Below, piece after piece: positions 57,215 to 60,510 of a stretch of DNA of 64,000 bases. Position 1 is the first letter of the stretch, and each line of letters begins with the position of its first letter. Where the stretch lies: NCBI GenBank assembly GCA_020241125.1, contig GCA_020241125.1_4708.1; one strand, 5' to 3'. Below the pieces are notes generated by a model. That model was not told the origin of the DNA. It made no database searches and saw only the letters and a list, made by a program, of their open reading frames with translations. Source of the DNA: a phage. The translations under genes were made by a program, and so were the position numbers.

Positions 57215-57748
57215 TTAAGCTCCTTTCTGTTTGATTGATGATGTTAACCACGATGATCTTACCGTGAAACCCTCGGACTCGTAGAACGCCTGGGCTTCGT
57301 CGTTATCAGCACGAACATCCAGGCCGATAGAATGCCCGCCGCATCGGTAAGCGATGTTACGTGCTTCGTTCATCAAGGCGTGGCCGATCCCGCGTCCACG
57401 GTATTCCGGTTTTACAACAATCGATGTAACATCATGAATGCCCATATGGCTCTCTGTATTCACTTCCAAGAGGCCTACCGGTATCGAAGCGATGGTGTCG
57501 ATCATAACGACCAACTTTGCGGTGTCCGGTAAACGCTTCTCTAATTCTAAGGCATCGTACTCGCGTTTTAAATCGGGGATATTCTCAAACATAAACGTGG
57601 TTGCCCATGCCTCTGATTCTACATCATCGAGAATACGGTACAGCTCACGAATCTGTCGTTTATGTGGGTAAAGGTGTGGATCGGCAGCCGTTGAGGCGAT
57701 AACGCAATAGAACGGCCGTTCATTAATAACTACTGTTTTGATGCTCAT
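57215..57748 (-). CDS. GNAT-family N-acetyltransferase
   Basis: Acetyl-CoA binding motif RGRGIGHALMNEA followed by AQAFYESEGF. Confidence 0.65.
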   Translation of the reverse strand: MSIKTVVINERPFYCVIASTAADPHLYPHKRQIRELYRILDDVESEAWATTFMFENIPDLKREYDALELEKRLPDTAKLVVMIDTIASIPVGLLEVNTESHMGIHDVTSIVVKPEYRGRGIGHALMNEARNIAYRCGGHSIGLDVRADNDEAQAFYESEGFTVRSSWLTSSIKQKGA

Positions 57749-58251
57749 GCTAAAATTCCCTCATTACCTAACAGTCGATTACGGTGACGTCGGTACATTT
57801 GACAAAGTGTTGTGATTTGATAAAGTTTGTTATAACGTAATTCGATACGTTTTTGCACCTCTTTCCATGAAAGTTTATCATATTGCCGATAACGATGGAT
57901 TTCATTCAACATCCGAAGACGCGTAGGATCGGTATTCTTTATTGTTACGAGCTTCACGCGTTGGTATCCGCGCTGCAACCCCGATTCAGAATACGTAATG
58001 CCGAACTCATCCTGAATGATAGTAATGATCTCCCGCCATCGGCGCTTCTCGCCGTCACGTAAATGGACAACCCGCGATAAGATATCGTTCCGATTACGAT
58101 GACTCAGTTTAATGTTAAGCATTGAAGCAATCGCGCTAATTGCTCTCTGACTCCGCCCTAACGCCTCACCGATCTCTTTCGATGTCATGACGCCAGCGTT
58201 TCGACGTATGAATGCGATTTCGGTTGTTGTGTATTCTTTACCTGCCGCCAT
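57745..58251 (-). CDS. HTH-repeat DNA-binding protein, paralog 1 of 6 (Myb/SANT-like)
   Basis: 168 aa; YTTTEIAFIRRNAGVMTSKEIGEALGRSQRAISAI HTH unit plus basic C-terminal unit; homologous to five upstream neighbours. Confidence 0.55.
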   Translation of the reverse strand: MAAGKEYTTTEIAFIRRNAGVMTSKEIGEALGRSQRAISAIASMLNIKLSHRNRNDILSRVVHLRDGEKRRWREIITIIQDEFGITYSESGLQRGYQRVKLVTIKNTDPTRLRMLNEIHRYRQYDKLSWKEVQKRIELRYNKLYQITTLCQMYRRHRNRLLGNEGILA

Positions 58252-58715
58252 TTCTTACCACGCGTGTTATAATAGTAACGTTGACAAAGATGTGTGTGAT
58301 GGTACTCCCGTTTGAACTCGACATTGATAATGCGAGCAACTTCTCTCCAGCTAACCCCTTCATGTCGAAGTGTCGTGATACGGTCTGAAATTTTGCACCA
58401 TTCACCAGGATCGTATCGTCGCAGTTTATGACGTCGTATTACGGAGGCGACGCTCGCTTTCGAGCGACCAAGATGATTCGACATTCGTTTAATCGAGTAT
58501 CTATGGATATTATCGCGAATATAGGAAAGCTCGTTGTCTGTATACGTCGCGTTGGTTCTCGGCGAAGGGAACAATACGTATAACTTATTCTTAATCGCGC
58601 TTTCTGTGCGTTGAAACACGGTAACCAGTTCACTAATCGATGGTCTAGGTATTTGATACGCGTAATTCTCGAGGCGTGAGAGTTCCTCATCTGTCCAGCG
58701 GCGGTATTTGCGCAT
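58185..58715 (-). CDS. HTH-repeat DNA-binding protein, paralog 2 of 6
   Basis: Start set at internal Met (MRKYRRWTDEEL) to avoid overlap with upstream gene; three units, e.g. WTDEELSRL...ISELVTVFQRTESAIKNKL. Confidence 0.55.
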   Translation of the reverse strand: MRKYRRWTDEELSRLENYAYQIPRPSISELVTVFQRTESAIKNKLYVLFPSPRTNATYTDNELSYIRDNIHRYSIKRMSNHLGRSKASVASVIRRHKLRRYDPGEWCKISDRITTLRHEGVSWREVARIINVEFKREYHHTHLCQRYYYNTRGKKWRQVKNTQQPKSHSYVETLAS

Positions 58716-59190
58716 GGGCAACTCCTTTGTTTTTCGTGTAATAACACCAACGTTGATACAACGCATGTTTATTCGTTGTAATCCCAAATTTAACAACAAC
58801 GTCGTATGTGATAATATTCCAATTTTGGGTGACGTTAAGTCGTTCCGCGATAAACGCGATAATCGCTTCCCGTTCTTGCTTGGTTAACGCACGACGAATT
58901 CCATTAAGCCGTATAAACTGACGAACCGAGTCATACGAACGGTTTAAATCATACGCAATCTCCCTCAGCGATTTTTGTTTGATTACGGACTTGATGTACG
59001 CACGTTCTTCTTCCGTATACGGTCGATGCTTCTGGCGTTGACGTATTCCCAAACGCCCCAGACACGCGTCGATGCTGGCGTATGTTCGTCCTGTCCGTTG
59101 TGCGATTTCATCAATCGTCAGCGGCGTGTTCAAGTACATGTGTGTAACATCTTTTAACTCATCGTTACGCCACGGCCGAGGTCGTCCCAT
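58687..59190 (-). CDS. HTH-repeat DNA-binding protein, paralog 3 of 6
   Basis: 167 aa; WRNDELKDV...IDEIAQRTGRTYASIDACLGRL and two further units. Confidence 0.6.
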   Translation of the reverse strand: MGRPRPWRNDELKDVTHMYLNTPLTIDEIAQRTGRTYASIDACLGRLGIRQRQKHRPYTEEERAYIKSVIKQKSLREIAYDLNRSYDSVRQFIRLNGIRRALTKQEREAIIAFIAERLNVTQNWNIITYDVVVKFGITTNKHALYQRWCYYTKNKGVAHAQIPPLDR

Positions 59191-59668
59191 CTTGTATCCC
59201 TCTTTTCTTTCTATGATGCCACCAACGCTGATAAACAGCTTGCTTCGTCCGTGTTATGCCAAAATGCGCATTAACCCGTTCAGCAATGTGGTACCAATCC
59301 TGCGTTTCTTCTAACAATGCATCAACGAAGGCTATGAAGATCTTAGTATCATCCTCGCTTAACCGCTTGAAGCCATGGCGGTGTGCTATTGTTCGAATAC
59401 TGTTTGGATCTCTGTTTAAATCGCGTGCGAGCTGTTTGTAACTTTTGTGCTTACAGTGTAGTCTGATATGTTCTAATTCATCGACGCTGAAACGTTTATG
59501 CGGTTTACGGCGTTCGACGTTTAAGTACCTCAACCTTGATTCGATTGCACCGTACGTCGTTTCCATGATTTCCGCGATTTCACGGATTTTTAATTTCGGG
59601 CGACGATCGTATAGTTTCAGCAACTGCTCATCGTACTTACGATTCCATCGTCGTACTGGGGGTTTCAC
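59165..59668 (-). CDS. HTH-repeat DNA-binding protein, paralog 4 of 6
   Basis: 167 aa; same three-unit architecture, C-terminal ...HFGITRTKQAVYQRW conserved with paralog 3. Confidence 0.6.
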   Translation of the reverse strand: MKPPVRRWNRKYDEQLLKLYDRRPKLKIREIAEIMETTYGAIESRLRYLNVERRKPHKRFSVDELEHIRLHCKHKSYKQLARDLNRDPNSIRTIAHRHGFKRLSEDDTKIFIAFVDALLEETQDWYHIAERVNAHFGITRTKQAVYQRWWHHRKKRGIQDGTTSAVA

Positions 59669-59670
59669 AA

Positions 59671-60150
59671 CTAGATTTCTCCTGTTCTACGCGTTTTTAA
59701 TGCTTGAGTGTAGTAAAGGGTATGAACACCGCTTAACGTGTAATGGGTGTTAAATTCGTTATTGATGATATTCTGTATTCTCTCCCAGGTTTTCTTCTCT
59801 TTTCTAAGAGTATGTATTCGGTGATAGATCATCTCTCGACGTTGCGCTTTGCACGCGATAATACCGTAGCGGTAGCAGAGTTTAGCGATCGCATCCACGC
59901 TACGATTGAACATTACCGCGGCTTCTTTCACGCTGTGCGTCTTGAGATAATCGGCTAACATCACGCGTTCTTCGAAACAACAATAGCGGTGACGCGACGT
60001 GAGTTTCCAGCGCTTGCGATTACGGTTAATTCGACCTTGAACCGAACCTTCCGTTCGGCCAAGTCGTACCGCAATCTCTTGCATCGGTATACCGTTTCGG
60101 TACAGGGTAATCAACATCGCATCTTCTTCGGGTGTCCAGTCCTTGACCAT
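59671..60150 (-). CDS. HTH-repeat DNA-binding protein, paralog 5 of 6
   Basis: 159 aa; WTPEEDAMLITLYRNGIPMQEIAVRLGRTEGSVQGRINR fits Myb/SANT consensus W-T-x-EED-x-L...IA..L.GRT. Confidence 0.6.
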   Translation of the reverse strand: MVKDWTPEEDAMLITLYRNGIPMQEIAVRLGRTEGSVQGRINRNRKRWKLTSRHRYCCFEERVMLADYLKTHSVKEAAVMFNRSVDAIAKLCYRYGIIACKAQRREMIYHRIHTLRKEKKTWERIQNIINNEFNTHYTLSGVHTLYYTQALKTRRTGEI

Positions 60151-60162
60151 AATGCCACCCCA

Positions 60163-60510
60163 TCAACGTCTTACTTTAAGCGGTATCTTGTTTCGAAAAC
60201 AATAACACCGGATGGCATGTACGCTACGATTCATTATTTCAGCAATCTCTTTTAGCGTATGTTTCTTTGCAAGCGTGGCAACCCTAACCCTTTCTTCTGG
60301 CGTATATACTCCCCCACGAGGTGGTAGGTCACCCCGTTGTTTTCTCAACTTGATGTAACGTGCGCGAACAGAGCACGGTGTTCGGTTCATGCAGCGCGCT
60401 ACTTCTTTATAGCTCGCTTTTGGTGACGTGCTAAGAATAAGCAGCAGTGTTTCATCTTCTTTATCCGTCCAACATTTACCCATCTTTTCTATTCTCCTTA
60501 ACCTTATCAA
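60163..60510 (-). CDS. HTH-repeat DNA-binding protein, paralog 6 of 6 (two units)
   Basis: 115 aa (start probably internal Met [11 protein letters not shown]); [13 protein letters not shown]...[22 protein letters not shown]. Confidence 0.55.

Follow-up and report, generated by a model that had tools for sequence, protein, structure and literature searches.

Six D5-like multi-helix-turn-helix genes form a tandem array beside the DNA ligase gene of a Goslar-like jumbo phage

Introduction

Gene D5 of phage T5 encodes an abundant protein that binds double-stranded DNA cooperatively. According to the note in the T5 GenBank record, D5 is a DNA-binding protein that is needed for DNA replication and late transcription and is involved in shut-off; the primary reference for this role is McCorquodale et al. 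(1979), as cited in PMC12630848. Here we describe an array of six adjoining genes, P1 to P6, whose products resemble D5, in a 64,000-nucleotide stretch of phage DNA (contig GCA_020241125.1_4708.1 of GenBank assembly GCA_020241125.1). This whole stretch is called the window below. Its part from 57000 to 61000 shares 92.6% identity with Escherichia phage vB_EcoM_Goslar, a 237-kb jumbo phage that is a laboratory model for nucleus-forming phages, and the six genes are the counterparts of Goslar gp114 to gp119.

Tandem helix-turn-helix (HTH) units also make up other DNA-binding proteins. Myb R2R3, Tc3 and Cbp1/Cbp2 insert helix 3 of each unit into the major groove, and the tandem ones bind asymmetric sites as monomers. 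Cbp2 is an archaeal CRISPR DNA repeat-binding protein with two homeodomain-like HTH units (PMC3597662), and Cbp1 builds chromatin-like structures together with Cren7 (PMC10883916). Jumbo phages are reported to carry 1-15 transcription factors each, and in Bacillus phage G-like phages the Myb-type HTH proteins have expanded, according to a study that does not mention Goslar (PMC7824862). In PhiKZ, the non-virion RNA polymerase (nvRNAP) recognises only the 4-bp sequence TATG at the start site, reads it via a beta-like subunit and works without an exchangeable sigma factor (PMC12809450), so that it is a real question how the middle and late programmes are set. A term search of a review of the chimalliviruses found no mention of transcription factors or DNA-binding proteins (PMC12908238).

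Results

Six adjoining paralogs belong to the D5-like family

P1 to P6 are encoded on the minus strand and cover positions 57745-60483, with corrected gene starts. All-versus-all BLASTP joined the six proteins in one connected graph (P3-P4 3e-23, P5-P6 1e-9, P2-P4 2e-6, P3-P5 7e-6 and P1-P5 7e-4; identity 21-37%), and they can be aligned along their full length. A preliminary description, made from the sequence alone, had noted six consecutive same-strand paralogs of basic character next to a gene for NAD-dependent ligase. This is borne out: the ligase gene is immediately upstream and all six proteins have an isoelectric point (pI) of 9.9-10.5.

The best PHROG match of all six proteins is PHROG 323 (transcriptional regulator, D5-like), with E-values from 1.5e-10 to 2.8e-19 (P2 1.3e-18, P3 2.5e-14, P4 2.4e-13, P6 2.8e-19). 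These matches span only positions ~92-294 of the 319-position profile. D5 of T5 (T5.118) matches the whole profile with an E-value of 1.2e-71, which makes it the archetype of the family. A profile of the array proteins aligns with T5 D5 in hhalign (84%, E 7e-6) and finds it in hmmsearch (3e-7). D5 has the same tandem W/F-T-x-EE...IA...G(R/K) HTH units and aligns unit for unit with the array profile; its gene, like the array, directly follows that for an NAD-dependent ligase, split into ligA and ligB, in an early/replication gene block. The differences are that D5 is a single gene product of 255 amino acids (aa) with a pI of 6.3, compared with six products of 106-176 aa and a pI of ~10 in the array, that only three of its units are recognised, weakly, by our unit model, and that the array has an additional unit type, C. 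The array proteins are distant relatives of T5 D5, that is, of a known kind of phage DNA binder. The preliminary description had named assignment to a well-characterised family as one outcome that would speak against it; a known family was found for all six proteins, and this family is itself only sketchily characterised.

Linkage of D5-like genes with ligase genes was rejected as a general rule. Five other ligase-bearing phages, Moabite, PhAER-2, FLC4-11C, Lacusarx and PhiPA3 (Moabite and PhiPA3 being chimalliviruses), lack any D5-like gene at a distance of up to 5 kb from the ligase gene. In the T5 stretch 62000-82000, the "replication origin binding" protein T5.108 is also annotated with a SANT/Myb InterPro domain.

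The proteins consist of three-helix units

Altogether, the six proteins contain 17 three-helix units. Eleven are of the A or B type and follow the pattern W/Y-T-x-EE...IA..LxRT/S, each with a unit-profile i-Evalue of 4e-8 or lower; in P1, for instance, unit B matches at residues 4-48 with an E-value of 4e-8. Unit A reads RRW-T-x-EE-x-L...I-x-EIA...RT..SI..RL and unit B reads Y-T-x-EE...I...K..S.KEIA..LNRS..SIR...R.GI, and the two are homologous to each other (hhalign 96.7%, E 4e-10). The remaining six are C-type units (...L..I..LR.E...W..I...IN.EFG..Y....L.QR), which have the helix register of A and B and show no significant hhalign similarity to either of them (E 0.002-0.018). Searches of unit C against PDB and Pfam gave only weak hints of HTH_33 (the IS630/Tc1-type HTH) or Myb_DNA-bind_5. 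The preliminary description had counted about 15 units, all of a single kind.

AlphaFold2 models of P5 and P1 (predicted local distance difference test, pLDDT, of 85 and 78, respectively) contain nine helices each, arranged as three three-helix bundles. Their predicted template modelling score (pTM) is low (0.42-0.45), as is expected for units that are beads on a flexible string. In helix 3, the paralogs have the scaffold positions in common (a small residue, I/V, R and L/I), whereas the exposed positions differ between paralogs and are conserved among orthologs. Paralog-specific variation is not concentrated in the recognition helices, since it is about equal in all helices. The pattern of scaffold and exposed positions would fit six different specificities, and since it is not confined to helix 3 it is only suggestive.

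Several Pfam HTH families were matched, and scores above the gathering cutoff were reached by P6, P5 and P4 only. P6 matches Myb_DNA-bind_6 (35.5 bits, cutoff 22.9) and Myb_DNA-binding (32.6 bits, cutoff 24.4), as well as HTH_23. For the Myb/SANT families (PF00249, PF13921), P5 and P4 stay below the threshold and P1 to P3 have no Myb match; at the level of the fold the match is clear. The closest solved structure by sequence is that of Cbp2, 2LVS (E 3.9e-9 across units A and B), followed by c-Myb R2R3 (9e-6). Foldseek also listed 2LVS first, weakly, beside the Tc3 bipartite domain, tandem homeodomains and the paired domain, and the structural matches further include the GcrA DNA-binding domain and SANT domains. 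A comparison with predicted viral structures ranked the Goslar paralogs first, followed by assorted HTH proteins, endonucleases, GcrA-like proteins and a T5-like "D5 protein".

Cbp1 and Cbp2 resemble the array proteins in being small and basic and in consisting only of tandem homeodomain-like HTH units, two in Cbp2 and three in Cbp1, with basic linkers. They differ in being archaeal and tied to CRISPR arrays. Membership in the Cbp1/Cbp2 family was rejected: P3 reaches only 24 bits with NCBIfam HTH_Cbp1 (NF040595; cutoff 140), no CRISPR-like repeat array was seen in the window and the similarity is remote. From Myb R2R3, the array proteins are set apart by the loss of the regularly spaced tryptophan triad of Myb repeats. 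The GcrA cell-cycle regulator was likewise rejected, with PF07750 at 15 bits (cutoff 26.9) and no GcrA C-terminal sigma-interacting domain in the array.

Two assignments that the preliminary description had named as refuting ones, homing endonuclease DNA-binding modules and terminase small subunit, were also discarded. Secondary PHROG matches are to the HTH parts of HNH endonuclease families; they span HTH regions only, and no nuclease domain of the HNH, GIY-YIG or LAGLIDADG type accompanies them. No nuclease or transposase domain was found by Pfam and PHROG searches in the array or its neighbouring genes. Terminase_5 was matched by P5 only and below the cutoff (E 0.014, 15.7 bits, cutoff 20.3), and the neighbours, a ligase and an acetyltransferase gene, also argue against a terminase subunit.

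The duplications are old and the genes are under purifying selection

No nucleotide-level repeat was found inside the array, which rules out a recent duplication of the array genes and argues for old duplications. The window contains no further family member. Across the Goslar-like genomes, positional orthologs are mutual best matches, and therefore the duplications predate the divergence of these phages. Comparison with Goslar gave ratios of nonsynonymous to synonymous substitution rates (dN/dS) of 0.07-0.29 for the six genes (P1 0.07, P2 0.18, P3 0.29, P4 0.08), similar to those of the flanking enzymes (0.05-0.13). The low ratios of all six show that they are functional genes.

The array is restricted to Goslar-like phages

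A search with the paralog profile among 1.84 billion proteins matched 13,930 representative proteins at E <= 1e-3; at E <= 1e-30 there were 108. In metagenomes the A-B module is very common, and one long protein usually contains 4-14 units. Beyond the Goslar-like orthologs, the top matches are 300-900 aa long and contain the ~100-aa A-B module in up to nine stretches. One of these long proteins is encoded next to a TnpV gene and another beside a Bro-N protein in a large phage contig. They share the module and the basic character (for example P0005, 791 aa; P0029, 348 aa; P0162, 287 aa, in a large phage contig), but their units are fused in one chain, in some cases with additional C-terminal domains; they lack the C-type unit and are not arranged as tandem gene arrays. 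That the number of units is far beyond what phages normally carry, as had been proposed, is overstated: the module occurs in ~14,000 representative metagenome proteins, and both the load of 1-15 transcription factors in jumbo phages and a Myb-type expansion have been described (PMC7824862).

A-B-C proteins and the six-gene array were found in Goslar-like phages only. A search of a phage collection matched Goslar alone, apart from weak matches in Klebsiella N4-like podophages; a single-protein scan of IMG/VR matched two contigs, both Goslar-like; and the protein database yielded a handful of clusters on 235-248-kb contigs. Database names for the array proteins are all "hypothetical" except for automated Myb/RcsB-like labels. 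Within the Goslar-like group the array always lies between the ligase and the acetyltransferase gene, with five or six genes of variable sequence. One relative (L006) has six genes, including a 152-aa P6 ortholog that carries a C unit, and its array is no more diverged than the neighbouring hypothetical genes. Another relative (L007, ERZ28627441 scaffold_17) has five genes, lacks P6 and contains a gene similar to Goslar gp120. Compared with the window, its nucleotide identity amounts to 0.90-0.97 from P1 onward, 0.48-0.69 across P2 to P6 and 0.70-0.86 in the ligase gene, and its protein identity is 37% for P3, 48% for P2, 52% for P4 and 71% for P5, compared with 87% for the ligase and 92% for the acetyltransferase. 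The sharp change of identity at the P1/P2 boundary, near 58250, with about 0.9 on its right and 0.5-0.85 on its left, looks like a recombination breakpoint inside the array.

Many NCBI isolate assemblies that bear the label E. coli O157, Salmonella enterica, Shigella flexneri or Enterobacter contain Goslar-like contigs of 235-248 kb, and the exact P1 and P3 sequences of the window are present in E. coli O157 assemblies. This suggests that enterobacterial cultures carry, or are contaminated by, this jumbo phage.

Gene starts, layout and transcription unit

The sizes of 115-204 aa given previously rest on coordinates that hold, with the exception of the starts of P2 and P6, which change the range to 106-176 aa. 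For P2, the ATG at 58715, with AAGGAG 6 nucleotides (nt) upstream, is preferred to the TTG at 58799, which gives a 204-aa open reading frame, and the resulting 176 aa agree with Goslar gp115. For P6, the ATG at 60483 with its AAGGAG is preferred to the TTG at 60510 (115 aa), and the shorter form fits the Goslar annotation. The 147 aa annotated for Goslar gp114 probably fall short of the full protein, because both Goslar and L007 conserve the 168-aa form of P1. The 21 codons upstream of the annotated start (MAAGKEYTTTEIAF...) are intact and conserved in the window, Goslar and L007, and they complete helix 1 of unit B. In Goslar, gp114 to gp118 are annotated as hypothetical and gp119 as a SANT/Myb domain-containing protein.

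The genes are tightly packed, each with its own Shine-Dalgarno sequence. P1/P2, P2/P3 and P3/P4 overlap by 67, 29 and 26 nt, respectively, P4 and P5 are separated by 2 nt and P5 and P6 by 12 nt, and the ligase stop overlaps the P6 start by 8 nt. Pfam ligase domains are on record for the ligase orthologs. In Goslar, gp120, a 235-aa, acidic, non-HTH protein for which no family match was found, is encoded between ligase and array (7488-8195 of the Goslar stretch, L001). Genes of this type are present in Goslar and L007 and absent from L006 and the window, where the ligase stop runs into the P6 start; gp120 is a clean insertion/deletion polymorphism at the array boundary. The segment 58001-60000 has the strongest AT skew of the window (-0.163), which fits A-rich codons for many Lys, Arg, Asn and Glu residues on the minus strand.

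In the window, intergenic regions repeatedly carry a GC-rich hairpin of the CCCTCYCC...GGGAGRGG type that is immediately followed by (T)TATGC(C/T)G. The sequence GGGNTNTATGCYG occurs nine times in the window, compared with 1.2 expected, and every time on the minus strand. These elements look like combined terminator/promoter cassettes. Two of them bracket a unit that comprises g103, the ligase gene, P6 to P1, the acetyltransferase gene and g142 (Table 1). No enrichment of sigma-70-type promoters or terminators was found inside the array, and no RNA families were found within 56-64 kb. Since the cassettes carry TATG, the consensus of the PhiKZ nvRNAP, the unit is probably transcribed by the phage polymerase, by analogy with that phage.

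The cassettes were obtained in a motif hunt in the intergenic regions, together with one common 34-nt 5' leader (gcaaccaatccaatataaaaggatgtcaagATG). The latter is a repeat with 94% identity at 24594-24627 and 52802-52835 that includes both the ribosome-binding site and the start codon of two minus-strand genes that differ otherwise.

Table 1. Genes of the array region, hairpin+TATGC cassettes and perfect palindromes. Positions are those of the window unless indicated.
Feature	Position	Strand	Description	Counterpart or remark
P1	57745-58251	-	168 aa, units B-C-C'	Goslar gp114 ortholog
P2	58185-58715	-	176 aa, units A-B-C	Goslar gp115
P3	58687-59190	-	167 aa, units A-B-C	Goslar gp116
P4	59165-59668	-	167 aa, GTG start, units A-B-C	Goslar gp117
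P5	59671-60150	-	159 aa, units A-B-C	Goslar gp118
P6	60163-60483	-	106 aa, units A-B only	Goslar gp119
NAD-dependent DNA ligase	60476-62545	-	directly upstream of P6, same operon	Goslar gp121
GNAT acetyltransferase	57215-57748	-	directly downstream of P1, 4-nt overlap	Goslar gp113
Goslar gp114	4746-5252 (Goslar stretch, L001)
Head cassette	62854-62933	-	GC-rich hairpin, then GTTATGCCG; motif 62874-62886	putative terminator/promoter
Closing cassette	56735-56784	-	hairpin, then TTTATGCTG; motif 56752-56764	downstream of array
Cassette	1411-1488	-	hairpin+TATGC
Cassette	9689-9750	-	hairpin+TATGC
Cassette	20259-20306	-	hairpin+TATGC
Cassette	24598-24771	-	hairpin+TATGC
Cassette	25174-25387	-	hairpin+TATGC
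Cassette	31392-31456	-	hairpin+TATGC
Cassette	49501-49593	-	hairpin+TATGC
Palindrome	16713-16728		perfect
Palindrome	17190-17207		perfect, AT-rich, 18 bp	TAAATTTACGTAAATTTA
Palindrome	17857-17872		perfect
Palindrome	52894-52911		perfect, AT-rich, 18 bp	AAATTAATGCATTAATTT

Discussion

We favour, with a probability of roughly 0.5, the interpretation that the array is an old, lineage-specific tandem expansion of D5-like DNA binders, which act as monomers with differing specificities on phage replication and transcription. Old duplications of a string protein of the PHROG 323 type, with Myb/SANT/homeodomain-like units, gave rise to the six genes, which form an operon with the ligase gene that is probably transcribed from a hairpin+TATGC cassette. 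Each paralog most probably binds double-stranded DNA in monomeric form, its two or three recognition helices entering successive major grooves, so that an extended asymmetric site would be read, as by Cbp1/Cbp2, c-Myb R2R3 and Tc3/paired proteins. It is probable that the six recognise different sites, because the exposed recognition-helix residues vary from paralog to paralog and are kept between orthologs. Descent from the D5-like family and co-transcription with the ligase gene are the grounds on which we place their action on phage DNA, where, by analogy with T5 gpD5, they might tune replication and the timing of transcription.

Several observations weigh against this interpretation. The similarity to T5 D5 is remote (E ~1e-6), and charge, length and copy number differ. 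The array was not found in Moabite and PhiPA3, the other chimalliviruses checked, and is therefore not part of the core transcription or replication machinery. The motif hunt yielded no binding site and no recurrent motif attributable to the array. In L007, P2 to P4 are only 37-52% identical to those of the window compared with 87-99% for the flanks, which is unusual for regulators of fixed sites in their own genome. No mention of gp114 to gp119, and no expression or localisation data for them, was found in the Goslar and chimallivirus papers searched.

The divergence in L007 would be easier to understand if the proteins took part in a conflict, binding the DNA of the host or of a competing phage in takeover, superinfection exclusion or interference with DNA-guided defences, with variability driven by an arms race. 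Cytoplasmic phage proteins of chimalliviruses have ready access to host DNA and not to phage DNA (PMC12908238). The array is also an accessory of a single lineage, its copy number varies between five and six genes with the gp120 insertion/deletion at its boundary, and in L007 divergence is much faster in the inner members than in the flanks. On the other hand, dN/dS against Goslar is low for all six genes, the L006 array has not diverged beyond its hypothetical neighbours, the co-transcribed genes code for a ligase, an acetyltransferase and a methyltransferase and are not known anti-defence genes, and no anti-defence family was matched among the Pfam, PHROG and NCBIfam profiles (the PADLOC library was not searched). 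We consider a conflict role unlikely, though it is the strongest of the rivals. The very basic nature of the proteins and their relation to D5 and to Cbp1/Cbp2, of which Cbp1 acts with Cren7 in a chromatin-like manner (PMC10883916), could alternatively indicate an architectural function, in which DNA in the phage nucleus is coated largely independently of sequence as a kind of phage chromatin, like that of T5 gpD5 or of Cbp1/Cren7 on CRISPR arrays. Non-specific coating does not need six diverged paralogs that are each under purifying selection, and does not account for paralog-specific exposed residues in helix 3, so this appears quite improbable. Somewhat more doubtful still is a more specific proposal, that the six paralogs are monomeric sequence-specific readers that are imported into the phage nucleus, where each marks a different class of promoters or origins and so provides the sigma-less polymerase with temporal or class specificity.

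Two further explanations seem very improbable. The genes might be orphaned DNA-targeting modules of homing endonucleases or transposases, selfish remnants that have no function for the phage; yet nuclease and transposase domains are absent in and beside the array, none of the six genes is disrupted, each has its own ribosome-binding site, and purifying selection acts on all of them in several lineages. We give the least credence to the idea, raised in the preliminary description as sigma-region-4 mimicry, that the proteins bind a host or phage RNA polymerase instead of DNA, as AsiA or gp33-type proteins do. P5 (35.8 bits) and P4 (27.1 bits) do exceed the Pfam cutoff of 25.7 for Sigma70_r4_2, and there are NCBIfam matches to extracytoplasmic function (ECF) sigma factors, which are weak and far below the model cutoffs. 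This is generic HTH similarity: Pfam matched neither sigma region 2 nor region 3 in any of the six paralogs, so that a sigma-70 family factor was rejected as well, and structurally the proteins come closest to Myb, SANT, the GcrA DNA-binding domain and Cbp2. Moreover, a sigma-like subunit is integral to the PhiKZ-type nvRNAP, which reads TATG via its beta-like subunit (PMC12809450), and Group 1 jumbo phages encode no sigma factor (PMC7824862).

The array is not a new kind of system, and its protein family is common. What is new is the arrangement: in a model nucleus-forming phage, a D5-like, Myb-type poly-HTH binder is divided among six tandem genes and carries a private third unit. The RsfA-like Myb-type expansion of the phage G-like phages is comparable as a lineage-specific multiplication of Myb-type HTH proteins in jumbo phages; as described (PMC7824862), it differs in that these phages have no phage RNA polymerase, infect a Firmicute host and use another Myb subfamily. 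Six co-transcribed, diverged and probably sequence-specific DNA binders are concrete, testable candidates for the programming of middle and late transcription, and they connect Goslar with the long-standing case of T5 D5, a DNA-binding protein said to couple replication and late transcription. Should the proteins mark promoters or origins, they would be a lineage-specific answer to the question how chimalliviruses, whose sigma-less polymerase has a promoter signal of only about four bases (TATG), program gene expression. Should their targets be host or rival DNA, they would constitute a new class of conflict factor. If they turn out to be ordinary accessory regulators, what is gained is a proper annotation for six "hypothetical" genes and a corrected start of gp114.

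Palindromes and repeats elsewhere in the window

The window contains four perfect palindromes of at least 16 bp, compared with ~0.9 expected, with lengths of 16-18 bp (Table 1). Three of the four cluster around the divergent intergenic region 17179-17399, and none is connected to the array. Two AT-rich ones had been put forward as perfect 16-bp palindromes and as possible binding sites of the array proteins. They do exist, but are 18 bp long and differ from each other. As binding sites they find no support, because of their different sequences, their distance from the array (5 and 40 kb) and the asymmetric sites that monomeric tandem-HTH proteins such as Cbp1/Cbp2, Myb R2R3 and Tc3 read.

A 124-nt direct repeat with 74% identity (35074-35197 and 35836-35959) links the adjacent minus-strand genes at 35067-35708 and 35820-36572, which are probably another pair of tandem paralogs.

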